A stretch of 64,000 bases of DNA from Patescibacteria group bacterium (GCA_004321885.1 SCQK01000007.1:1-64000), one strand, 5' to 3'; positions 13,792-54,773 are shown, counted from the stretch's first letter. Notes: generated by a model from the sequence alone, not told the origin. Numbers and translations are program-made.

Positions 13792-14669
13792 ACTGTATTC
13801 GTTGCCGGCTGGGGTGCGAACAGTTTGCCCGGGCCCAAGGGATTGTAACCGTTCCTGACTTCTTTGCCGTCAACATAGCTGTCGCCGTCGGTGTCCGGAT
13901 TCAACGGGTCGGTTTTCCAGATAATCACTTCATCGCCGTCGGTCAGGCCGTCGCTATCGCTGTCTGTTTTTTCCGGGTCAGTGCCCAATTCTTTTTCCCG
14001 AACATCATCCAGGCCGTCTTTATCCGTATCCACGGCCTCGCCAAATAGTATTGTATCATTTTTCATCTTGTTTGGCACTTCCGTGGAAGTGGGAGGAGGC
14101 GCGGCGCCAGAGTCAGCGGCAGTTCCCACGCTGGCTCCATAGTCCCCCGCAGGGGGCGGCTGTGGAGCCGAAGTGCTGGCATTGGGCTCCACAGCCCCGA
14201 CTAAGTCGGGGACTATGGAGCCAGCCGGAGTGAGACTCGCGGGCTTGGCCGCAGGTTGTTTGATAAATTTTCCATAAGCCCACCAGCCGCCGCCCAAGAG
14301 CACGATAACAAGCGCTATGGCCAGTACCACCTTGCCGACTATCGGCGCCTTCATTTTGTAGGCCGGAATTTCACTGCTCAAATCTTCAAAACCAACCGGC
14401 GGGGTTTGCACGCGTAAATTCATCTCCCTGCCGCTGTCTTCCATCAATGGCTTCTTCTTCAAAAGCCCGGCGGATAAAGCGTCGGCTGTCGGCGCTGACG
14501 CGGTCGTTGTCGTTCCCCCCTTTATAAGAGCCTGCCCCGAACTTGTTTCGGGAGGGGACGCTGGGTGGTAATCCGCGTTTGCCTTCTTCTCCACCCCGTC
14601 AAAAATATCCACGGGCTCGCCGGGTAAATTGGCTGGCGGCGCGCTGGCCGCTTTTTGGTCGTCAAACAT
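13782..14669 (-). CDS. Membrane-anchored TSP3-repeat protein (tandem paralog 2 of 3)
   Basis: TDPEKTDSDSDGLTDGDEVIIWKTDPLNPDTDGDSYVDGKEVRNGYNPLGPG. The ORF extends to 14756 through a palindromic element; the start is taken at MFDDQK. Confidence 0.6.
   Translation of the reverse strand: MFDDQKAASAPPANLPGEPVDIFDGVEKKANADYHPASPPETSSGQALIKGGTTTTASAPTADALSAGLLKKKPLMEDSGREMNLRVQTPPVGFEDLSSEIPAYKMKAPIVGKVVLAIALVIVLLGGGWWAYGKFIKQPAAKPASLTPAGSIVPDLVGAVEPNASTSAPQPPPAGDYGASVGTAADSGAAPPPTSTEVPNKMKNDTILFGEAVDTDKDGLDDVREKELGTDPEKTDSDSDGLTDGDEVIIWKTDPLNPDTDGDSYVDGKEVRNGYNPLGPGKLFAPQPATNTVAN
14133..14226. repeat. Nested or compound palindrome (two family A elements in opposite orientation) in frame in the CDS
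   Basis: gctggctccatagtcccccgcagggggcggctgtggagcc, a spacer, then ggctccacagccccgactaagtcggggactatggagccagc. It encodes GSIVPDLVGAVEP. The second half is identical to 52830-52868. Confidence 0.7.
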
Positions 14670-35153: not shown

Positions 35154-36248
35154 TCAATTTATTTTTCTCACAACTCCCTTCTCCGCGTCCACCTCCACCA
35201 TATCGCCGTCTTTGAAAACCTGCGTGGCGATTTTGGTGCCGATGACGCAGGGAATGCCGAGTTCGCGCGACAGAACCGCCGCGTGCGACAACACGCCTCC
35301 CTCGTCCGTTACTACTGCCGCGCTGTTTTTCACTATTTCCATCAGTTGAGGATTGGTAGAGCTGGCAACCAGAATATAATTATTTATTGCGATTTTTCCG
35401 GTGTTGTTCTCCAAAAGCAGAACCTTGCCTGCGGCTTTCCCGGCGCAGGCCGGATACCCTTTAATCAACTTCGGCGCTTCTTTTATCTTAAAAAATTCAT
35501 CGTCAATTTTTTTTACCATCGCCGGATTTGAAATAATAAGTTCGCGCTCGCCCCGCTCTACAAATAAATAAAAAAATCCGTTGCGCCGTTTATTCAGCTC
35601 ATTCAGTTCGCCCGCGCTCAATCGCTCTTTATCTAAAAATTTTTTCATTTCCGCGACAGAAAGCAAAGCCAGCAAATCGCCGCTAAACTTCTTTCGCCGC
35701 CCCACATTATTCGCCGCGTCCGCCAGCATTTTTTCTATTTCAGGATAAAATTGAGCCATTTTTTCGCGGTTACGACTAATAGTTTTTATATATTTCGGCA
35801 GGGCCTTTTCGTTATTCCCGACAAAACGCCAAAAACAATTGATAATGCCGATAGCGGCCATAAAATTCGGATACTGCGCGGTCAACGCTTTAAGAAATTT
35901 TTCCGGCCGTGAAGAAATATATCGCCTGTGCTTCAAAATTTCGTTTTGGCATCTGGCAAAAATTCTTTCTGCGGGTTCAAAAGCCATTTTAGTTAATTTG
36001 TCAAAATTCTTTTGCGCAAATTTTTTGGTGCGGTTGATTACTTTCTGCTCATCATACATGGAATGCCAAAAATTCACGCGCCCCTTGCCCGCCACGGCGC
36101 CATACGATATTTTTATCTGCTTTCTTAACAGCTTCGTGTAACCAAGCCCAACGGCGCTTAATGAAAACAACGACATGCATCTTTGAGTGGCAGGCCTCAA
36201 TTTATGCTTTTGAATCAATCTTTTTAGTTGGCCAAAATCAACGGCCAT
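35154..36248 (-). CDS. PEP-utilizing enzyme mobile (swivel phosphohistidine) domain protein, paralog 1
   Basis: 364 aa. The C-terminus VTDEGGVLSHAAVLSRELGIPCVIGTKIATQVFKDGDMVEVDAEKGVVRKIN matches the PEP-utilizers family. Confidence 0.7.
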   Translation of the reverse strand: MAVDFGQLKRLIQKHKLRPATQRCMSLFSLSAVGLGYTKLLRKQIKISYGAVAGKGRVNFWHSMYDEQKVINRTKKFAQKNFDKLTKMAFEPAERIFARCQNEILKHRRYISSRPEKFLKALTAQYPNFMAAIGIINCFWRFVGNNEKALPKYIKTISRNREKMAQFYPEIEKMLADAANNVGRRKKFSGDLLALLSVAEMKKFLDKERLSAGELNELNKRRNGFFYLFVERGERELIISNPAMVKKIDDEFFKIKEAPKLIKGYPACAGKAAGKVLLLENNTGKIAINNYILVASSTNPQLMEIVKNSAAVVTDEGGVLSHAAVLSRELGIPCVIGTKIATQVFKDGDMVEVDAEKGVVRKIN

Positions 36249-36278: not shown

Positions 36279-36307
36279 TTGACAAAAACGCGAATTTGTG
36301 CTATAAA
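36279..36307 (+). promoter_or_regulatory. Sigma70-like promoter TTGACA-17-TATAAA with an extended -10
   Basis: ttgacaaaaacgcgaatttgtgctataaaa is nearly identical to the promoter at 52513. A 240-nt ORF-less leader follows, sharing tgttttgt...aatgaaa with the 52548 locus. Confidence 0.55.
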
Positions 36308-36447
36308 AAACTGCTTGTTTTGTGTGAATGAAACACCACGGGCTTACGCCCGGGGAACTGCGTTAGAATATTAGCCAATCTTGGCTAACTTTCCCTAAAC
36401 AAGAGCACTTTGAAAAGGGAAAAGTACTCTTGAAAAGCATTTTGATT

Positions 36448-36474
36448 GTCATTCTTGCCCGTGAGCAGGAATCC
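36448..36474. repeat. Family A element gtcattcttgcccgtgagcaggaatcc
   Basis: Located in the leader upstream of the GC-rich phosphatase gene. Confidence 0.6.
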
Positions 36475-36552
36475 AGTCAGGATGCTTTTCAGGAGGATAG
36501 GAACCCCGATTAGTCCGGCAAGGAGCCGGACACCACTGACAAGGAGAGAGAA

Positions 36553-37149
36553 GTGAAGACAATCATCGTTGTGAGGCATCCCGAGAAGGACGGAGACAAG
36601 ATCACGGCACTCGGTGCCATGCAGGCCTTCGCGACCGCGCTGGCGCTCGGCGCCATGTTCCCGAAGATTACCCAGATCCTGTGGTCGGGCGCGAACCGCG
36701 CCTGGCAGGCAGCGATGGTGACCTTGGCCGCGCTCGGTGGCGATGGCCGCTGGCTCAAAGAGAGCCGCGGCTTCCACTTCGAACCGACATTCACGAACGT
36801 CTACGGCAAGGACGCCCCCGCGGCGTTCAAGGCCGAGACGGCCGCCATCAAGGAGCGACTCGGCAAGTCCGCCCTCACCGTCGCCGACGCATTGGAACAC
36901 AGCGAGTACGCGCGCCAGGGCCGAGTGGTTATGACGGACACACTCTTCAAGCTCGCCAGCACGATGAAGGACGACGACGTGGTGCTGGCCGTCAGTCACT
37001 CGCCGTGGTTGGAGCTCGCCGCACTCGACCCGGCGACCATGCCCTACGGCATCGGCGAGGCCGAAGCTGTGGCCTACCACATAGAGGACAGCAAAATCCT
37101 GACCATAGAGCGGGTGTTGTCCTCGCTGGCCGGCAAGGCCAACTGCTGA
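36553..37149 (+). CDS. Histidine phosphatase superfamily (phosphoglycerate mutase / SixA-like) protein; GC-rich, probably foreign
   Basis: GTG start preceded by the RBS aaggagag. IIVVRHPEKDGD and LAVSHSPWLE motifs are present. Its GC content and GC3 are clearly above those of neighbouring genes (judged by eye). Confidence 0.6.
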   Translation: MKTIIVVRHPEKDGDKITALGAMQAFATALALGAMFPKITQILWSGANRAWQAAMVTLAALGGDGRWLKESRGFHFEPTFTNVYGKDAPAAFKAETAAIKERLGKSALTVADALEHSEYARQGRVVMTDTLFKLASTMKDDDVVLAVSHSPWLELAALDPATMPYGIGEAEAVAYHIEDSKILTIERVLSSLAGKANC

Positions 37150-37782: not shown

Positions 37783-39258
37783 TCATATTTTTCTCACAAT
37801 CCCCTTCTCCGCGTCCACTTCCACCATATCCCCGTCTTTGAAAATCTTTGTAGCTATTTTTGTAGCAATAACGCACGGCTTTTTCATCTCGCGAGCCACA
37901 ATGGCCGCGTGACAAATGAGACCGCCTTCGTCCGTCACAATGGCGGCCGCCCTTTTCATCGCCGGCACCATATCCGGATCAGTCATGGAACTGACCAAAA
38001 TTTCTCCTTCCAACAAATTCTGCGCTTGGTATTCCATTTTTATCACTCTCACCCTGCCTTTTACTTTTCCGCGATAAGCCACAGCTCCTTTCACTTCCTT
38101 AACTTCTTCATGTCCAAGTCCCAGAAACTTATCAACAAATTTTCTCGCCTTATCTCCGCTGCCATCAACTATTTTTCCCCTACTAAGAAGGCAATAATAA
38201 TAGCCGAACCGTTCATTGATTACTTTTTTCAACCGCGGTCTACTTTTTTCATTCATCAGATAATCTCCCATCTGACGATAATTTAACTGCCGCAAAGATA
38301 TAACATCCATTCCAACTCGGTCGGCAATCGCCTGAAACAAAGGATAGGACCAAAGAATCGCGCGGCTCATTGCCGCCTTTCTGCCGTCGTTTGATATATT
38401 GATTCCTCGTAAATATTCTAAGATATTAAGTTCGGCGCGCGAAAATTTGTATTTTTTTAACAATTTTTGTCTTGCCCGCGAAATTTCACCCGGACCATTC
38501 AAAAGATTTTTCAATTCAACGGAAAAATTATTGTCTGAAAATGTTTTTCTAACCCCGGCGATAGCCAGGTTCAAATTTAAGGGTTGAACATGGTGGCTGA
38601 CCGGAACCCAATCAAAATTTCTAACGTAATTTTCAATTTGGCAATACAAAGCGGGGTGAAAACGTCCCAACTGTTCTATAACTTCTTCGTCGGTTTTTTT
38701 GAACAAAGATTCTAATTCATGTTGACGAACTTTCTTGGCAATATTTAATAAAGCAATCCGCTCGCGATTGTATTCTCCGAGCTCGGTGGAAGAAATCAAA
38801 ATTGACATGTCATCGGCCGGTACCGCGCACTTTAGTATGGTCGGCAATAGTGCACTAATCGCGCCATCCATAATTTTCGGAAAAGGATATAGCCCGAATT
38901 TTGCCGACAATAGCGCGACAAATTTATTAAGCAACCGGCTCAAAACATTTTTGTCAGCTTGGAAGCAATCCCGGAAACGAACTGAATGACAAAACTTAAG
39001 GAGTAGGGAGTCGGCACCTTTAATTACCGCGAGAATACGTGGAATTGAAGTCTTTTTTAACAGCCGCGCAATCCAATTCTTCGCGGCCAAATCATTTTTT
39101 GGATGATAATAAATTGATGTCAACTGCTTGTCCGTAATTGACACCCATCCGTCTAACTTTAAACCAACTCTCAATCCTTGCTCGCGAAAGCCCTTAACAA
39201 AAATGCTCATGTAAAAAGGCATTCTAATTCCGGCGGACATGAATTTTTTCCACTGCAT
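37783..39258 (-). CDS. PEP-utilizing enzyme mobile-domain protein, paralog 2
   Basis: 491 aa. The C-terminus VTDEGGLICHAAIVAREMKKPCVIATKIATKIFKDGDMVEVDAEKGIVRKI is nearly identical to the C-terminus of the 35154 paralog, including at the DNA level. Confidence 0.7.
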   Translation of the reverse strand: MQWKKFMSAGIRMPFYMSIFVKGFREQGLRVGLKLDGWVSITDKQLTSIYYHPKNDLAAKNWIARLLKKTSIPRILAVIKGADSLLLKFCHSVRFRDCFQADKNVLSRLLNKFVALLSAKFGLYPFPKIMDGAISALLPTILKCAVPADDMSILISSTELGEYNRERIALLNIAKKVRQHELESLFKKTDEEVIEQLGRFHPALYCQIENYVRNFDWVPVSHHVQPLNLNLAIAGVRKTFSDNNFSVELKNLLNGPGEISRARQKLLKKYKFSRAELNILEYLRGINISNDGRKAAMSRAILWSYPLFQAIADRVGMDVISLRQLNYRQMGDYLMNEKSRPRLKKVINERFGYYYCLLSRGKIVDGSGDKARKFVDKFLGLGHEEVKEVKGAVAYRGKVKGRVRVIKMEYQAQNLLEGEILVSSMTDPDMVPAMKRAAAIVTDEGGLICHAAIVAREMKKPCVIATKIATKIFKDGDMVEVDAEKGIVRKI

Positions 39259-40518: not shown

Positions 40519-41287
40519 CATGTTTCTCCCTATGTCGCCATAAGGCACGGACTATATCATCACCCGTTTTGAGAGAATTTTTTGCTTAGCCGGATGCCAT
40601 GAGCCGATAACTCGGATAAAATCTTGGAGCGAATTCGCTCTCACGAATATGCGCCAATAATCCGGGTCAACTCGCTTGCTGGGATTGTGAACTTTCCCGC
40701 AAACGATGCTCATTTTTTTCAACATCTGTTTAAGCTTGCATATCTTGGCTTTATCCTTTTGCACCAATTGTATATACAGCCGCGCTGTAATGTGGTGCGG
40801 AACGCCGCCTTCGGCGTCAAAGAATCCTCGAATATACGCTTTTTGTTCTTCGCGACTTTTTAGCCGCAATGGATCAAAACGGAAATCCAGAAATGACGCT
40901 AATGTTTCAAGAACATGGACATCTCTGTCTTTTCCTTCGCGATACATCCAAGACGAATAGCCAATCTTTTTTAGAAGTCGCTTTAGCGTTTTTAGCCAAC
41001 CGGTTCCCTTTTGTGAAAAACGGAATCTGCGGTTACTGCTAAATGTGCCGTCGTGCAATGCTCCTAAAAGATATGCTTTTATTTCTCCCCTTAACGGGGT
41101 TCGGCGTGTAGTCTCTGAGGGGTCAATCCCGACTAAGTCGGGACGACTTCCCTGCTGATTGACTGCACCGAAAACTTTTTCACTCATACTGCTATAGTGT
41201 AGCACAAGTAGTTTCGGATACACAGTGTTTCCAGCAAACAGCCGAATTTGTTTTTAGCGATTACTCGCTAAGAGTCGCAATTTGTTT
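40519..41287 (-). mobile_element. 16S rRNA intron 1 (about 769 nt, near E. coli position 1506) carrying a LAGLIDADG homing endonuclease ORF
   Basis: The exon sequence ccttgtt / acgactt is split by this insertion, which contains the ORF at 40552..41223. Confidence 0.7.
40552..41223 (-). CDS. LAGLIDADG homing endonuclease (intron-encoded)
   Basis: 223 aa with the motif IRGFFDAEGGV; a second motif lies near LLGALHDGTF. Confidence 0.75.
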   Translation of the reverse strand: MYPKLLVLHYSSMSEKVFGAVNQQGSRPDLVGIDPSETTRRTPLRGEIKAYLLGALHDGTFSSNRRFRFSQKGTGWLKTLKRLLKKIGYSSWMYREGKDRDVHVLETLASFLDFRFDPLRLKSREEQKAYIRGFFDAEGGVPHHITARLYIQLVQKDKAKICKLKQMLKKMSIVCGKVHNPSKRVDPDYWRIFVRANSLQDFIRVIGSWHPAKQKILSKRVMI

Positions 41288-41699
41288 ACGACTTTACCCT
41301 AGTCACTGACCCTGCCTTAATTCCCCGAAGGAAACTTTGGGCATTGCCAGCTCCCGTGGTATGACGGGCGGTGAGTACAAGACCCGAGAACGTATTCAAC
41401 GCGCCGTGGCTGATGCGCGTTTACTAGCGATTCCGACTTCATGAAGGCGAGTTGCAGCCTTCAATCTGAACTGGGGCCGGTTTTGATGGGATTGGCTCCG
41501 CCTCGCGGCTTAGCGACCCATTGTACCGGCCATTGTAGCATGTGTGTAGCCCTGGACGTAAGAGCCATGCTGATTTGACGTCGTCCACCCCTTCCTCCCG
41601 GCCCGCTGTTCGCTTGCTTTCGCAAACGCCCAAAGGGCCGGGCGGTCTCGCGTGAATATTTAACACGCGACGTGGGTTGCGCTCGTTTCCCAACTTAAT

Positions 41700-41992
41700 G
41701 GTACACCTCCGGATTATTATCTTCACGCAGACTATTCCTTCACCCTTTGCCGACTAAGTCGGCATGAGGGGCTGGCGTATTAGCGGAACTATAAATTCAA
41801 TCACATCCATGAATTCCGCTCTTGGCAAAATGCCTTAGTCGTTACAGGGTCAACCCACGATTTTATTTAAAATCGGGGCGACTTCCCTCGGAGTTCCCAA
41901 ATTCATATGGTATATTTTACCATTTTTACATGAATTTGATAATGAGGTTCTCCGATATGAGCCAGATTTCTCATATCTCTTTTCAGAGATAG
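41700..41992 (-). other. ORF-less insertion of about 290 nt in the 16S rRNA (near E. coli position 1090): a degenerate intron or expansion segment
   Basis: The conserved sequence cccaacttaa...catctcacgacacgagctgac is interrupted. The insert has no ORF. It contains ccgactaagtcgg and the ggcgacttccctcgg motif shared with the other insertions. Confidence 0.55.
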
Positions 41993-42118
41993 GCCGCGAG
42001 ATGTTCACGGCACGAGCTGACGGCAACCATGCAGCACCTATCTAGCACCCTCGAAGGCGGCGGCCGTTTCCGGCAGCTTGCAGCTAGTAGTTGAGCCCAG
42101 GTAAGGTTCCTCGTTTGT

Positions 42119-42163
<45 letters not shown>

Positions 42164-42299
42164 TATTCCTTTGAGTTTTAACCTTGCGGCCGTACTCCCC
42201 AGGCGGCGCACTTAACGCGTTAGCTTTTTTGAACGGCACTGACAGGGTCGATACTGCCAATACCTAGTGCGCATAGTTTAGGGCGTGGACTACCAGGGT

Positions 42300-43330
42300 C
42301 ATTTCACTTTACATTTCTGTAAAGATTGGACTATATCATTTTCTGTAAGCTTTCCACTTGCTTTTCTTGAGATTGACATACTCTCGTATTTTTTCCAAAG
42401 AAAAGCCCGTGTTTTTCGCTATTTCAGAAATCCAGCGTTCTTGAAGTTGAACATCGTTATACATCAGAATCACTTTGGGCAAAACTTCTTCAACCTTCGT
42501 ATAAGGCAGAATAATGCGAAGAAGTTTTTTTAGTTCCTCGGTGGAACGCAACCAAATTCTGAAGTATTTTTCTTTTTTTCCATTAACCTTTGTAATGGAT
42601 GCCACTCTGACCTTGATTTTCCAGACTGTTTGAAGATATTTGGCTAAAACTTGCACGGCTTTTTCATCAAAGCCATCGGTGCAGATGACGCCTTTTCTAC
42701 CATTTGAAATGATAGAACCGTCGTCAAACCACCAGATTGCCAGTGATAATGGGCTCATGAAATTTAACCACTTTCTTCGTATTTCCAATCTGTTGTTTTT
42801 ACAGGTCAGATTGTGCATTTCCGTCAATGCTTCCAGGGCCTTGCTTTGATAACGAAGTTTTGCTTGTTTGCTAAACCCGTTATCTTGTTCTTGAAGCCAG
42901 ACCGACTTATCCGAGGATATCTCGGACAGCTGCCTGACCTTCCAGTCAAAGTAGGCTTTCTGAATGACGGAGTGCCTGAAAGAAAATCTGGCGTTTTTGT
43001 ATGGCCGATGGATTTTTAACGACCCGTCGCCCAACAAAGAGCCGAGGATTATTTCTTTCACGCCATTTGACAAAGGCACATTAGAATAATTATTCATAAT
43101 TTATGAATGATAATTAAATGCGCCAACTATCTTTCATCAACTTCATAGTCTCTACGGGGTCGAACCGCATTTGGCGGACGACTTCCCTCGGGATTGTCCA
43201 AACTGATGGTAGTATTTTTTTGTTTGGAGTTTCCCCGATATAGCTGAATGCTCATCTCAACATTGCTGTTGAGAGGGACACCGTTTATGCCGACTTGTTC
43301 CGCCTTAGGCGAACAAGCGACAAAGGATCT
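42300..43330 (-). mobile_element. 16S rRNA intron 3 (about 1.03 kb, near E. coli position 790) carrying a LAGLIDADG homing endonuclease ORF
   Basis: The exon sequence ggactaccagggt / atctaatcctgtt is split. The insertion contains the ORF at 42336..43097 and about 230 nt of flanking intron core. Confidence 0.7.
42336..43097 (-). CDS. LAGLIDADG homing endonuclease (intron-encoded, two-motif type)
   Basis: 253 aa. Motif 1 is ILGSLLGDGSL and motif 2 is IWWFDDGS. Confidence 0.8.
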   Translation of the reverse strand: MNNYSNVPLSNGVKEIILGSLLGDGSLKIHRPYKNARFSFRHSVIQKAYFDWKVRQLSEISSDKSVWLQEQDNGFSKQAKLRYQSKALEALTEMHNLTCKNNRLEIRRKWLNFMSPLSLAIWWFDDGSIISNGRKGVICTDGFDEKAVQVLAKYLQTVWKIKVRVASITKVNGKKEKYFRIWLRSTEELKKLLRIILPYTKVEEVLPKVILMYNDVQLQERWISEIAKNTGFSLEKIREYVNLKKSKWKAYRK

Positions 43331-44475
43331 ATCTAATCCTGTTCGCTCCCCACGCTTTCGTCCATGAGTGTCAGAAACGTACCAGCAAGCTGCCTTCGCC
43401 TTTGGTGTTCTTGCGGATATCAACGCTTATTACGACTACACCCGCAATTCCGCTTGCCTCTTCCGTCCTCAAGTTTGGTAGTTTCAAAGGCAATCTTAGA
43501 GTTAAGCTCTAAGTTTTGACCCCTGACCCGCCAAACCACCTGCGGACGCTTTACGCCCAATAAATCCGGATAACGCTTGAGGTCTCTGTATTACCGCTAC
43601 TGCTGGCACAGAGTTAGTAACCTCTTATTCACGAAGTACCGTCACGAATTCTTCCCTCGTAAAAGCGGTTTACGACCCGAAGGCCTTCATCCCGCACGCG
43701 GCGTCGCTCCATCAGGCTTTCGCCCATTGTGGAATATTCTCGACTGCAGCCTCCCGTAGGAGTCTGGGCAGTGTCTCAGTCCCAGTGAGGCAGGTCACGC
43801 TCTCACGCCTGCTACTGATCATCGCCTTGGTGAGCCATTACCTCACCAACTAGCTAATCAGACATAGGCCCCTCTCCAAGCAGCTTGCGCTTTTAAATGC
43901 GAATGACTTTTGTCCCCGCATTGCCATCGGGTTTTAATTCGCCTTTCGGCGAGCTATCCCCGTCTCGGAGGTAGGTTACCAATGTGTTACTCACCCGTTT
44001 GCCGCTCGTAATTCCCTTGCGGGAACACGTCGCTCGACTTGCATGCCTTAAACACGCCGCCAGCGTTCATCCTGAGCTAGGATCAAACTCTTAAAAAGAG
44101 TTGATCTCGTTCTACCCGACTTCGCCAAAGCTACATCGGGTAAGATGAACGAGTTAATATATACGGATTTATTTATTTATACTCGGTCGCCTCTTCGGCA
44201 GCCGAGTTTCGAATAGACTTTATTTTGTGGTTTTTGTCACGTTTGTGTTGTCAATGAACTTCTTACCCTGTTCGCAGAGTAAGAAAAAAGAGTAATCAAA
44301 TCTTGATTCCTCTTTTCTCTTACCAGTATCCACCGAAGGCGGACTTAGAAGACAAGCTGAATTGTCGGAGGTGCTTTTGCTGAAGGATTTATATTAAATC
44401 TTAGCTTTCGCATTTTATCATATACCAAAATTTTGTCAAGGGGGTGGGTGTGGGCAGAATGTGGATAAAAAAACA

Positions 44476-51868: not shown

Positions 51869-52459
51869 ATGGAACCAAAATCCCAATATCTTATCCCCAC
51901 GGTCATAGAAAAAACCCACTACGGCGAGCGGGCCTACGACATCTATTCGCGGCTCTTGCAAGACCGCATTGTTTTTTTGGGCACGCCCATAGACGACGGC
52001 GTGGCCAACACGGTCATTGCCCAGCTCTTGTTTTTGGACAATCAAAGCCCGGAAAAAGACATCAAGCTCTATATCAATTCCCCGGGCGGCTCGGTGACCG
52101 CCGGCATGGCCATCTACGATACGATTCGCTATATCAAAGCCGAGGTTTCCACCATTTGCATTGGCCTGGCCGCCAGCATGGCCTCGGTGATTTTGGCCGC
52201 CGGCGACAAAGGCAAGCGCTTTGCCCTGCCCAACGCCGAAATTATGATGCACCAGGTAATGGGCGGCATGGAAGGCCAGGCCAGCGACATCAAAATCCGT
52301 TCCGAGCGCATTTTGCGCATCAAGGACCGGCTAAACCAAATTTTGGCCAGCCACACCGGCAAAACCATACAGCAAATTGAAAAAGATACGGACCGCGACT
52401 ACTTTATGACGGCCCAAGAGGCCTTAAACTACGGCTTGATTGATAAGGTGATTGAATAG
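51869..52459 (+). CDS. clpP: ATP-dependent Clp protease proteolytic subunit
   Basis: Ser-His-Asp triad context [17 protein letters not shown], with a [12 protein letters not shown] stretch. Confidence 0.95.
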
Positions 52460-52512
52460 AAACGAATTTTTAGCTAAAATTAGCAAAATTTAAGCATTTC
52501 TGCCCTGCCCCC

Positions 52513-52541
52513 TTGACAAAAATAGCCATTTGTGCTATACT
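52513..52541 (+). promoter_or_regulatory. Near-consensus promoter TTGACA-17-TATACT with a TGTG extended -10
   Basis: ttgacaaaaatagccatttgtgctatact drives the terminator-bounded locus that has no conventional gene. Confidence 0.65.
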
Positions 52542-52547
52542 GTTTTG

Positions 52548-52815
52548 TTACGTACAATGAAAAGGCGGGTATATGAATTGCCCCGCCAACACAGTCGGAC
52601 ACGGATTTATGCATGCTATCCAGTTGTTCCAGACCCATATAGTATGTATCAACCCGTATCCACGACAAGCATGGAGGTGTGTTAGAGGGTGGCACTGGCG
52701 CAAGCTCGTCTGCTTCTTTAACACATCTTCTTGGATGCGGTTTCTAAGGGGGGGTTTCACTCCCCCAAAAACTATTAAAACCCCGTTGCCTTAATTGGCA
52801 ACGGGGTTTGTTTTC
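52548..52815 (+). ncRNA. Candidate small RNA of about 265 nt (identity unknown), or an mRNA for a 73-aa Cys/His-containing small protein
   Basis: It is bounded by a strong promoter and a bidirectional terminator. It contains imperfect long-range complementarity and a gggggggtttcactccccc hairpin. The ORF at 52573..52794 (MNCPANTVGHGFMHAIQ...) has a weak SD. Its 5' region is paralogous to the leader at 36308. Confidence 0.35.
52777..52814. terminator. Bidirectional rho-independent terminator
   Basis: aaaaccccgttgccttaattggcaacggggtttgtttt serves both the plus-strand locus and the convergent VanW-like gene. Confidence 0.7.
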
Positions 52816-52820
52816 GCGCA

Positions 52821-54773
52821 CTATGGCTCCACAGCCCCGACTAAGTCGGGGACTATGGAGCCAGCGGCTGTCGTTCCATCAATCGTACTGGTGGCTCCGC
52901 CAGCCGGCGGATCCGGCCCCACCATGCAAATCTGGGGCAAGGGCCGGTAATAGCTGTCAAACACCCGCTCAATCTGTTCCGAAGACGAGGTGACGCGCGT
53001 GTAAGTAAAACTGGCCACTGCCCCGCGGAACGCGTTCTGGCATTTTTTCTCGCCTGGTTTCAGCTTGTCGCTCTCAACTGTTTGCGGCTCGCCGGCCGGA
53101 ATCCACTTGCTTACCTTGGGGTGGTCATACCAGCCCTTGCGCCCGTCGCTCTTGCCCCACAAAGTAAAAACCAGACGCTGTTTCACATAGTCAATTTCGG
53201 TTTGCAAAAGCAGGTAGCCACCCGTGTCGTTTAAGAACCGAAAATCAATATCCGGCTCGTAAAGCGTGGCGTCCGTGCCCGGATTGCCGTTGACCGGGTC
53301 CGCGTAATAACCCACCACCAGGGAATGGTTGCGCCTTTGCGTTATCGGCATGCCCGAGTTCATGGCCATTCTAAAAAGCGTGGTGCCTATTTGGCACATG
53401 CCGCCGCCGATTTCGTTTTTTATTTCTTTGCCTTTTATCACGGCCTCGGGCAAAAAACCGACCGCGGCCGTGAACGGCCCGGCGAATTTAATGGCGGAAA
53501 ATTCTTCGCCGGGCGCGATGATAACCCCGTTTAGCCGCCGCACTGCCAAGGCGATATTTTTTATCCGGTTGGTGTGGCTGTCGCGAAAAGTGGAGACGCC
53601 GGCGCCGAGCCTGTCGGTGATGCCCAAATTGTTGGCGTCGGAAACTTTTATATCCGGCTCCATGATACTGACCGATAATGTCAGGGTCTGGGCCCGGCCT
53701 GCCCCTTCGTAATTGCGGGCGCGGAAAATAGCGTCAAGTTCGGCGTAGGTTTTTTCCATATCCAGACTGACGCCCGACTGACTGGCCTGAAATTCTTTCA
53801 CTTTGCCGTCCTCCATCAAAAATTTTGCGTTTTTGGCGGCCACATCCACCGCGGGCTTCACAAAATTCTCCAAATAGGCAAAAACCCTTTCTTTATTCAA
53901 GGCAAACACAAACTCATTGTCAGCCGCGCGCGTTTCCAGCCAATCGGCGTAAACGTTGTTTTTTATGTTCCAATCGCGCCGCTCCTTGGTGCGCGAATCA
54001 ATATAGTTCAAATTCAAATCTCCGGCTGTCAAAACCGCCGGTAATTTTGCCAGTATGGATTCCACGTCCGCTTTATTCACCGAGGGAGAAAAACCGCTTT
54101 GTTTTATTTCAATCGGCGCCAGGGTCAGAGCGGCCATTTTTTGCTCCATTTCCGCGCGCGCTTTGGCTATTTCAAAAATGGCGCCTTTTTTGGCCGGAAC
54201 AATTTCATAGGCGAGCGGCGACAGACTCGTAACTTTCACGTTGGCGTCGCGCGGATTTTCGGCCGCCGGGGCCAAATCGCTTTTAAGCTGTTCAACTAAT
54301 TTATTATCCGTCTGAATTTGCGCCTGAATTTTTTCCTTAAAAATCAAAAAAGAAGGCGGCAATAAAAGGTCTTTCCACCACGGCCCGCCCCGCCCGGCGC
54401 CGAACGCCAAGGCGGCGGTTTCGGCGCTTTTGACGCTGGCCAGCTCCACCGAAGAATCGCCGGCCGGCACCGCGTCTATTTTTAAATCAATTTTCTCGCC
54501 GCTTTTGGGATGATAATAAAAAAAATCAATGCCGTCTTTGGCGATTTTGTCGTTGTAAATTTCCAAAAATTCTGTCGCCTTTTCCGCGCTTAGGCCGCCC
54601 AAGTGATATTGGCCGATGTAAACGCCCGGATAAACTTTATTTTTATAAATCTGCTGATAGGCAAAAGCCGAGGCAACCGCAAAGAGCGCCAAACCAACCA
54701 GCGCAATGAGTGCGAACAGCGCGCTTTTGAGCATGGAATTTTTCTTTTCTGCGGGAGGATTTTTTTCAACCAT
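52821..54773 (-). CDS. VanW-family protein with an N-terminal membrane anchor
   Basis: 650 aa. The C-terminal VanW-like region reads MPITQRRNHSLVVGYYADPVNGNPGTDATLYEPDIDFRF. The last 15 aa are encoded by a family A palindromic element. Confidence 0.65.
   Translation of the reverse strand: MVEKNPPAEKKNSMLKSALFALIALVGLALFAVASAFAYQQIYKNKVYPGVYIGQYHLGGLSAEKATEFLEIYNDKIAKDGIDFFYYHPKSGEKIDLKIDAVPAGDSSVELASVKSAETAALAFGAGRGGPWWKDLLLPPSFLIFKEKIQAQIQTDNKLVEQLKSDLAPAAENPRDANVKVTSLSPLAYEIVPAKKGAIFEIAKARAEMEQKMAALTLAPIEIKQSGFSPSVNKADVESILAKLPAVLTAGDLNLNYIDSRTKERRDWNIKNNVYADWLETRAADNEFVFALNKERVFAYLENFVKPAVDVAAKNAKFLMEDGKVKEFQASQSGVSLDMEKTYAELDAIFRARNYEGAGRAQTLTLSVSIMEPDIKVSDANNLGITDRLGAGVSTFRDSHTNRIKNIALAVRRLNGVIIAPGEEFSAIKFAGPFTAAVGFLPEAVIKGKEIKNEIGGGMCQIGTTLFRMAMNSGMPITQRRNHSLVVGYYADPVNGNPGTDATLYEPDIDFRFLNDTGGYLLLQTEIDYVKQRLVFTLWGKSDGRKGWYDHPKVSKWIPAGEPQTVESDKLKPGEKKCQNAFRGAVASFTYTRVTSSSEQIERVFDSYYRPLPQICMVGPDPPAGGATSTIDGTTAAGSIVPDLVGAVEP
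52830..52868. repeat. Family A element ggctccacagccccgactaagtcggggactatggagcc, in frame at the C-terminus of the VanW-like protein
   Basis: Identical to 14187-14226. It encodes GSIVPDLVGAVEP in both proteins. Confidence 0.75.

Follow-up and report, generated by a model that had tools for sequence, protein, structure and literature searches.

OLE and raiA RNAs are lineage-specific orphan structured non-coding RNAs (ncRNAs). A large part of bacterial diversity falls within the Patescibacteria, or Candidate Phyla Radiation (CPR), whose genomes are tiny and whose members are, with few exceptions, uncultivated. In the present study we analyse a locus at 52547-52814 (+) in a stretch of 64,000 nt from a Patescibacteria group bacterium (GCA_004321885.1, SCQK01000007.1:1-64000); this whole stretch is referred to below as the window. 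Lineage-named structured RNA motifs are among those obtained by comparative genomics in Weinberg et al. 2010 (PMC2864571). Like these motifs and like OLE and raiA, the locus is a stand-alone gene with a promoter and a terminator, occurs in one lineage, and displays strong sequence conservation, covariation, and non-coding character. Unlike them, it lacks any sequence or structure match in Rfam 15, belongs to Patescibacteria, occupies a fixed position between clpP and vanW, and carries a conserved, putatively mutually exclusive pair of helices. Its own promoter and terminator, conservation, compensatory changes, and lack of a coding signal are those of a generic stand-alone ncRNA gene. No family was returned by Rfam 15, by ARAGORN, or by the literature, and the RNA is therefore regarded as a new lineage-specific structured ncRNA. 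We conclude that 52547-52814 (+) is very probably an independent gene for a stable, highly structured ncRNA of a family not described in Rfam 15. For the best explanation as a whole, i.e. this identity together with the mechanism proposed below, we estimate a probability of about 0.7. An earlier annotation of the window, made from the sequence alone (the original prediction), had proposed a candidate novel small RNA (sRNA) here, and the RNA is indeed conserved, predicted to be independently transcribed, strongly structured, supported by covariation, and without an Rfam match.

Known families were compared using the 4227 models of Rfam 15, with membership defined as a score at or above the gathering threshold of the family. 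At that threshold the whole window contained only 16S ribosomal RNA (rRNA), two transfer RNAs (tRNAs), and a group I intron, and 18 relatives contained only tRNAs. At E ≤ 10 the RNA locus gave only terminator-like or microRNA-like chance matches far below threshold, and at E ≤ 1 nothing was found at the RNA in 13 relatives. The original prediction had suggested a check against 6S RNA, transfer-messenger RNA (tmRNA), RNase P RNA, and signal recognition particle (SRP) RNA; none of these models, nor those of rRNA, matched the locus at E ≤ 10. ARAGORN found no tmRNA in the window, and searches for ncRNA, structured RNA, and 6S RNA in the literature on Patescibacteria, CPR, and Magasanikbacteria returned no description of the RNA. 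SRP (4.5S) RNA is similar in having a conserved hairpin of ∼95-100 nt, an asymmetric internal loop, and a stable tetraloop, and the loop of the present RNA contains AAGCA. However, the tetraloop here is a variable UUCG or GCAA with GGC:GCU closing rather than a conserved GNAR, and the invariant loop lies ∼25 bp from the apex, on the 5' strand, with no symmetric loop. Bacterial SRP RNA was rejected on the missing GNAR tetraloop with adjacent conserved loops and on the lack of an Rfam match. The present RNA also resembles bistable RNAs such as riboswitch expression platforms and attenuators, as strand M has two alternative pairing partners that are conserved and nearly identical. In contrast to such RNAs, the helices involve neither the terminator nor a downstream ribosome-binding site, there is no downstream gene, and no ligand-binding family matches.

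The RNA consists of a variable 5' domain, a conserved core hairpin of 95 nt, a variable hairpin (H4), and a terminator. The structure of the core was derived with RNAalifold from structure-blind MAFFT alignments, and the covariance model R1 represents the 95-nt core with 24 bp. In the window, the conserved core hairpin spans 52654-52740 (+), where helix (a) pairs strand M (CCGUAUCCA, 52654-52662) with UGGAUGCGG (52732-52740) and encloses an internal loop and helix P2. The consensus of helix (a) is CYGUAUCCA:UGGRURCRG, 9 bp; in locus L035, CCA:UGG is replaced by CU(U):(U)AG. The asymmetric internal loop, CGACAAGCAU (52663-52672, +), places 10 nt opposite a single U at 52731 and has the consensus C(G/U)ACAAGCAU, again 10 nt versus 1 nt. 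Within it, ACAAGCATGG is invariant in eight loci retrieved independently of the RNA sequence, and among 127 unique cores the only loop variants were C(G/T)ACAAGCAT or the loss of one C. Helix P2 (52673-52730, +) pairs GGAGGUGUGU (52673-52682) with ACACAUCUUC (52721-52730), with the consensus GGRGRUGUGU:ACAYCUUC. It leads to the apical stem GGC-GCAA-GCU (52697-52706), whose GCAA tetraloop is replaced by UUCG, UCCG, UACG, or UUAG in relatives.

Base pairing in the core is supported by compensatory changes; conservation and covariation in relatives, put forward as a check in the original prediction, were both found. In a structure-blind MAFFT alignment of 31 sequences (A3), 99.3% of cells were paired and 8 pairs were compensatory, and none of 500 shuffles reached any of these measures. 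Sliding the 3' partners by 1-3 columns as a control reduced pairing in A3 to 40-52%. In A5, which comprises 88 distinct sequences and was aligned and fitted to the structure of R1, 99.1% of cells were paired and 13 of the 24 pairs were compensatory (e.g. CG in 39 and UA in 39 sequences, or GC in 40 and AU in 32). The apical pairs covary in the same alignment (AU 53, GC 28; CG 67, UA 13). R1 matched the window at 52649-52743 with 98 bits (E = 7.5e-21), compared to 18.7 bits for the antisense strand. This difference, together with invariant G-U pairs, places the RNA on the plus strand.

The first relatives were retrieved without use of the RNA sequence, from contigs encoding VanW homologues with 50-59% identity. 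A search of genome contigs with a single VanW protein gave no confirmed loci, and exact-protein look-ups and DNA patterns were used instead. All seven contigs retrieved through VanW (L002-L004 and L033-L036) display the order hsp20-vanW-gap-clpP-DHH, with a gap of 390-590 nt that lacks called genes, and the element was found in each of the seven vanW-clpP gaps. Comparison of the first four sequences showed a gap that has diverged outside three invariant parts: the 20-mer CCACGACAAGCATGGAGGTG, the motif CATCTTCTTGG, and the promoter CTTGACAAA. The exact 20-mer matched 28 GTDB species-representative genomes, of which about half are labelled Magasanikbacteria/Magasanikiibacteriota or Patescibacteria/Parcubacteria/Paceibacter, one is labelled Udaeobacter, and the rest are labelled 'uncultured Gammaproteobacteria'; we take the last label to be an error. 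Among the loci, L013 comes from a complete genome of the clade (OZ246405.1). With a relaxed two-anchor pattern the RNA was found on at least 120 metagenome contigs, including 'Hain-H41/H43/H51' assemblies. Model R1 matched all of 100 metagenome loci, at 63-107 bits and with one sense-strand copy each, and no copy was found on viral contigs. R1 is a practical marker of the family, as true members score at least 63 bits and background remains below 31 bits.

In the eight unbiased sequences, 44 of the ∼95 core positions are invariant, among them those of ACAAGCATGG, CATCTTCTT, GGC...GCTC, and CGGTTT. Pairs of cores in this set are 75% identical on average, and the neighbouring VanW protein has drifted to 36-59% identity. 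Across 156 loci, the RNA adjoins clpP and/or vanW whenever flanking sequence is present. In 54 complete and 23 partial loci it has the direction of clpP, which is the arrangement of the window, and in 32 complete and 33 partial loci it is inverted and has the direction of vanW; its own promoter and an upstream element are retained in both orientations. The family is, as sampled, restricted to Magasanikbacteria-type Patescibacteria, single-copy, and always located between clpP and vanW.

A sigma-70-type promoter precedes the RNA at 52513-52541 (+), with the -35 element TTGACA at 52513-52518, a 17-nt spacer, and the -10 element TATACT at 52536-52541. It agrees with the consensus at 11 of 12 positions and has an extended -10 TG at 52533-52534 (-15/-14), and the near-consensus promoter of the original prediction is thereby confirmed. 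Among 107 unique promoters of the RNA, TTGACA is exact in 97, the spacer is 17 nt in 100, and TG is present in 92; the motif GTYRY directly follows the -10 element in 67. The near-consensus 16S promoter of the window (44439, -) reads CCCCTTGACAAAATTTTGGTATATGATAAAAT, and CCCCTTGACAAAA is common to both promoters. On this account the RNA promoter is taken to be highly active, and it is probably of a stable-RNA, rRNA-like type that would give high expression.

Further upstream, the element TTAGCTAAAATTAGCAAAA (52470-52488, +) is a conserved motif in relatives. In the window it contains the palindrome GCTAA-AA-TTAGC (52473-52484), and its half-site TTAGC(C/A)AAAA, which reads TTAGCAAAA (52480-52488), lies 33 nt before the -35 element. 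At the homologous positions of L002-L156, the element has the form TTAGCCAAAA, is often half of a GGCTAA-N2-4-TTAGCC palindrome, and lies 34-35 nt before the -35 element. Of 115 unique upstream regions, 70 contained T[TA]AGCNA, and for 46 of these the distance to the -35 element was 34-35 nt. In all 1.1 Mb of fetched loci, 52 of the 57 instances of TTAGCCAA followed by TTGACA were at the RNA promoter. The element thus seems almost exclusive to this promoter, where it may serve as a binding site for a transcription factor or as a UP-like element.

The RNA ends at an intrinsic terminator, located by a scanner at 52778-52814 (+) and composed of an A-tract, a 13-bp stem, and a U-tract. Its hairpin (52778-52809) has 13 bp, of which 8 are GC, and is followed by GTTTT and preceded by the A-tract. 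The tracts on the two sides make the terminator bidirectional, in line with the original prediction, and it also serves the convergent vanW gene, whose end is at 52821. Equivalent sites with a hairpin and a T-run are present in relatives. The predicted transcript of ∼268 nt (52547-52814, +) would start near a conserved GUUAC, 6 nt past the -10 element as judged from promoter geometry, and extend to the terminator U-tract. The estimated transcript length across members is 158-522 nt, with a median of ∼313 nt. Folding of 52548-52815 gave -111.3 kcal/mol, compared to -74.0 ± 4.7 kcal/mol for dinucleotide shuffles (z = -8.0, 0 of 200 as good), and the long-range complementarity previously noted is present. 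With promoter and terminator confirmed and a fold far below that of shuffles, we regard the locus as real.

Strand M can also pair upstream. In hairpin (b) (52597-52662, +), GGACACGG (52597-52604) pairs with CCGUAUCC of M within 52654-52662 and encloses an inner hairpin at 52606-52652. The upstream element of this helix has the general form GGRNRYRG, closely resembles the 3' strand of helix (a), and pairs with the same M. Most members can form either duplex, with similar energies of -11 to -22 kcal/mol for (a) and -7 to -20 kcal/mol for (b). Of 124 unique sequences, 54% contain an upstream complement to M that beats 95% of shuffles (5% expected), and in 33% it beats 99% of shuffles. In 73% the complement fits its own M better than the M of the other sequence class. 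Full-length folding favours (b) over (a) by a median of 4.5 kcal/mol, and in 86 of 113 sequences this margin exceeds 2 kcal/mol; nevertheless, helix (a) carries clear covariation. In L010 and L019 helix (b) is lacking, and helix (a) is extended to 12 perfect pairs and is much stronger. From these patterns we infer that the RNA is a two-state device in which helices (a) and (b) would be mutually exclusive. In the 5' domains of L007, L011, L016, and L029 there is a second CUGUAUCCACGAC motif, partial or complete, upstream of the core, which suggests that the helix (b) module was duplicated in tandem within one subclade.

In the proposed mechanism, the invariant loop and the adjacent sequence-invariant pairs would form a recognition platform for a conserved protein or ribonucleoprotein (RNP) partner, and the RNA would be an abundant scaffold or binding RNA that acts in trans. 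Such a platform would exist only when helix (a) is formed and the loop is presented between two helices; with helix (b) formed, the loop and the 3' strand would be single-stranded. The active fold would thus require that helix (b) be displaced, e.g. by the partner, by co-transcriptional folding, or by temperature. This model of a trans-acting protein- or RNP-binding RNA that is gated by (a)/(b) pairing is the one we favour, though tentatively, with the odds against it in this specific form. Several points weigh against the interpretation. No RNA-binding protein is encoded beside the gene. The invariant loop could equally be a site of RNA-RNA contact, catalysis, or ligand binding. Helix (b) is not universal, being significant in about half of the sequences and absent from L010 and L019, and joint covariation of (a) and (b) is partly non-independent as M is the shared partner in both. 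L005-L032 and L037-L156 were retrieved by exact core patterns, which makes the pattern positions invariant by construction and leaves only eight sequences unbiased, and the A5 counts reflect an alignment made to the structure of R1. Finally, RNA ends and abundance are deduced for all members from sequence features.

It is also possible, if rather doubtful, that the RNA is an unrecognised housekeeping RNA specific to Magasanikbacteria, such as an essential RNP component or a catalytic or sensor RNA, with the loop as active or recognition site and the helices as a switch. If true, this would give it a rank comparable to that of 6S or OLE RNA, in Magasanikbacteria specifically. The 44 invariant positions of ∼95 in the core, the rRNA-like promoter, and the single locus in more than 150 sequences make the RNA a strong candidate for an important, lineage-defining function. 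In these ultra-small bacteria it may serve as a new regulatory or housekeeping RNA. The conserved alternative helices amount to a concrete hypothesis open to in vitro tests, for which the organism need not be cultivated.

An unlikely but still serious alternative to the protein- or RNP-binding RNA is a trans-acting, base-pairing sRNA. With helix (b) formed, the invariant linker ACGACAAGCAUGG, the 3' strand CUUCUUGGRURCRGUUU, or both would be single-stranded seeds for mRNAs, with targets such as CCAUGCUUGU around a start codon or the Shine-Dalgarno (SD)-like AAGAAGG, and the RNA would control translation or stability. The invariant stretches are indeed predicted to be single-stranded in the thermodynamically favoured conformer, a structured body with an intrinsic terminator is typical of bacterial sRNAs, and, as we read it, CUUCUU is similar to an anti-SD-like seed. 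However, the 3' strand is sequestered in helix (a), and this helix shows compensatory changes. The initiation regions of DHH, clpP, vanW, and hsp20 were no better targets than shuffles (z from -1.35 to +0.62), and duplex energies between the RNA and the 16S region of the window were at shuffle level. With 44 positions invariant in the unbiased set, the 95-nt core is also much more constrained than a typical seed-plus-scaffold sRNA.

We consider it unlikely that a divergent form of a known housekeeping RNA was missed by Rfam. The most plausible such RNA would be a 6S-like binder of the RNA polymerase holoenzyme, with the internal loop as an analogue of the open-promoter bubble. 6S RNA (ssrS, RF00013) sequences are poorly conserved between phyla, and no literature discussing 6S RNA in Patescibacteria was found. 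The present RNA shares with 6S RNA a strong, constitutive-type promoter, a single copy, the character of an abundant-type stable RNA, and a conserved internal loop within a long, irregular hairpin, and it may likewise be protein-sequestering. In contrast to 6S RNA, its minimum free energy (MFE) and centroid folds are multi-hairpin structures with several extra hairpins, no closing stem, and no convincing pairing of the 5' and 3' ends, and the loop is one-sided (10 versus 1 nt) rather than a two-sided bubble. The apex, with UUCG or GCAA, carries no SRP-type loop. RF00013 did not match at any of the thresholds applied, and the searches of the locus and of the two sets of relatives described above, as well as ARAGORN, also argue against any 6S, SRP, RNase P, or tmRNA homologue. 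Other known RNAs were rejected individually. tmRNA had been prompted by the clpP neighbourhood and by a weak match in L089 (945-962, 12.8 bits), and this match proved to be the T-arm of a downstream intron-containing tRNA gene. That gene lies just past the RNA terminator of L089 (526-970), has a separate promoter and an anticodon loop split by a group I intron (618-924, 110 bits), and was not called by ARAGORN. An rRNA fragment or mimic was rejected on the lack of rRNA-model matches and of any blastn match at E ≤ 10 to all complete E. coli genomes. The 8-nt CCACGACA presumably resembles the 3' region of E. coli M1 RNA and is unaccompanied by the CCGGCUUA P4 strand; RNase P RNA was rejected on its negative Rfam result.

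A cis-acting element, either a 3' untranslated region of clpP or a structured region that controls clpP or vanW, is very unlikely. The RNA is always located between the two genes, and the window copy is co-directional with clpP, 53 nt past its stop codon. On the other hand, its own near-consensus promoter is conserved (107 unique promoters), and in ∼40% of loci the unit is inverted relative to clpP and vanW, with the promoter and the upstream element moving along. As the RNA ends at a terminator facing a convergent gene, there is nothing downstream to regulate in cis. A cis-regulatory leader or riboswitch was rejected for the same run into the terminator and convergent gene, and for the occurrence of both orientations. 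In the window, the locus lies in the 361-nt gap between clpP (51869-52459, +) and the convergent vanW (52821-54773, -), which encodes a 650-aa VanW-family protein that is 100% identical to 'hypothetical protein EPN28_01740'.

The original prediction further proposed that the promoter and leader of the RNA are duplicated at 36279 and that the promoter recurs at 138, as a family of related RNAs or leaders or a mobile promoter cassette. An identical promoter core does exist at 36279, with a spacing of N5 instead of the N7 that had been given: the N7 pattern had no match in the window, and TTGACAAAAA-N5-ATTTGTGCTATA had exactly two, at 36279 and 52513 (0 expected). Position 138 shares TTGACA and TGTGCTAT, i.e. 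the -35 hexamer and the extended -10, and nothing more. The leader similarity did not hold up, as the best local alignment downstream of the 36279 and 52513 promoters scored 15 compared to 13.7 ± 2.1 for shuffles (p ∼0.3), and 369 of 1270 other window segments scored as high. R1, run with filters off, found one copy in the window and none near 36279 or 138. In favour of a duplicated or mobile cassette common to 36279 and 138, the promoters at 36279 and 52513 agree at all 22 specified positions (0 expected by chance). However, identity is limited to the extended -10 and the -35 element with the adjoining A-tract, a consensus of the lineage that recurs in the promoters of the RNA across the family and in the 16S promoter. 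The transcribed sequences resemble each other no more than expected by chance, and neither repeats, mobility genes, nor matches to viral contigs were found. Such a cassette is highly improbable, and the promoter identity is instead convergence on the strong-promoter consensus, as judged from the sequences. The 'phosphatase' label that had been given to the open reading frame (ORF) downstream of 36279 is unsupported, with no Pfam match.

The region at 36279-37149 (+) has features of its own. A TTGACA-17-TATAAA promoter is followed by a leader of ∼250 nt with a fold z of -7.5, a long imperfect hairpin, and a perfect palindrome, TTAGCCAA-TC-TTGGCTAA, at 36371-36388. This leader has no Rfam match and is not homologous to the RNA at 52547. 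It is followed by a GTG-initiated ORF of 198 aa in an island of 65% G+C, with flanks of ∼42%. The island is bordered by ORFs of 364 aa (35154-36248, -) and 491 aa (37783-39258, -); the former contains a Pfam PEP-utilizers mobile domain, and the latter has a near-identical C-terminal stretch (...FKDGDMVEVDAEKG.VRKI).

The prediction of a 73-aa Cys/His-rich small protein as product of the locus, encoded by an ORF (52573-52794) that is the longest on the RNA strand and the sole ATG-initiated ORF of more than 70 aa within the transcript, has a practically negligible probability and is already refuted by the comparative data: start and frame are unconserved, codon-position bias is lacking, and substitutions preserve base pairs instead. 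The same frame meets stops 4-8 codons into the core in L003, L004, L008, L009, L020, and L034, the start codon is missing in L002-4, L009, and L030, and in relatives the open frame is anywhere between 0 and 155 aa long. The region around the start cannot be aligned across relatives, variable core sites fall on codon positions 1, 2, and 3 in numbers of 20, 23, and 20 with equal entropies, and the ORF has no Pfam match.

Outside the core, the RNA is variable. The 5' domain is 56-379 nt long across relatives, and k-mer counts in it revealed no universal motif beyond the helix (b) strand and the semi-conserved AGUAAGUA. In the MFE structure of the window RNA it contains hairpin H1 (GGCGGG...CCCCGCC, 52564-52587, +). 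The G7/C5 hairpin of the original prediction is hairpin H4 (GGGGGGG-UUUCACU-CCCCC, 52748-52766, +), whose position is conserved: as judged by inspection, nearly all of 123 unique sequences have a hairpin here. H4 stems are unrelated in sequence among members, with GGUCGC/GCGACC, GUCCCGAC/GUCGGGGC, and AAGGAC/UCCUU as examples.

Elsewhere in the window, within 40528-44098 (-), the 16S match spans 2861 nt for a model of 1533 nt, which indicates that the 16S gene holds large insertions. Its 3' end coincides in part with a group I intron match (40528-41297, 69 bits), as is typical of intron-rich CPR rRNA genes, and the Rfam scan reported no 23S match in the window. The palindromic 13-mer CCGACTWAGTCGG occurs seven times (0 expected), at 14197, 29749, 32648, 41129, 41750, 51841, and 52837, and copies are located, among other places, in the DHH-clpP spacer, in the 16S/intron region, and at the 3' end of vanW. 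The copy at the vanW end is part of a longer inverted repeat (52823-52863), for which a sub-threshold ncr1175 match was obtained. The CCGACTWAGTCGG hairpin is also present in variable parts of the RNA in relatives such as L026, L031, L050, L087, and L127, and it looks like a lineage-typical stable hairpin similar to repetitive extragenic palindromic (REP) elements.

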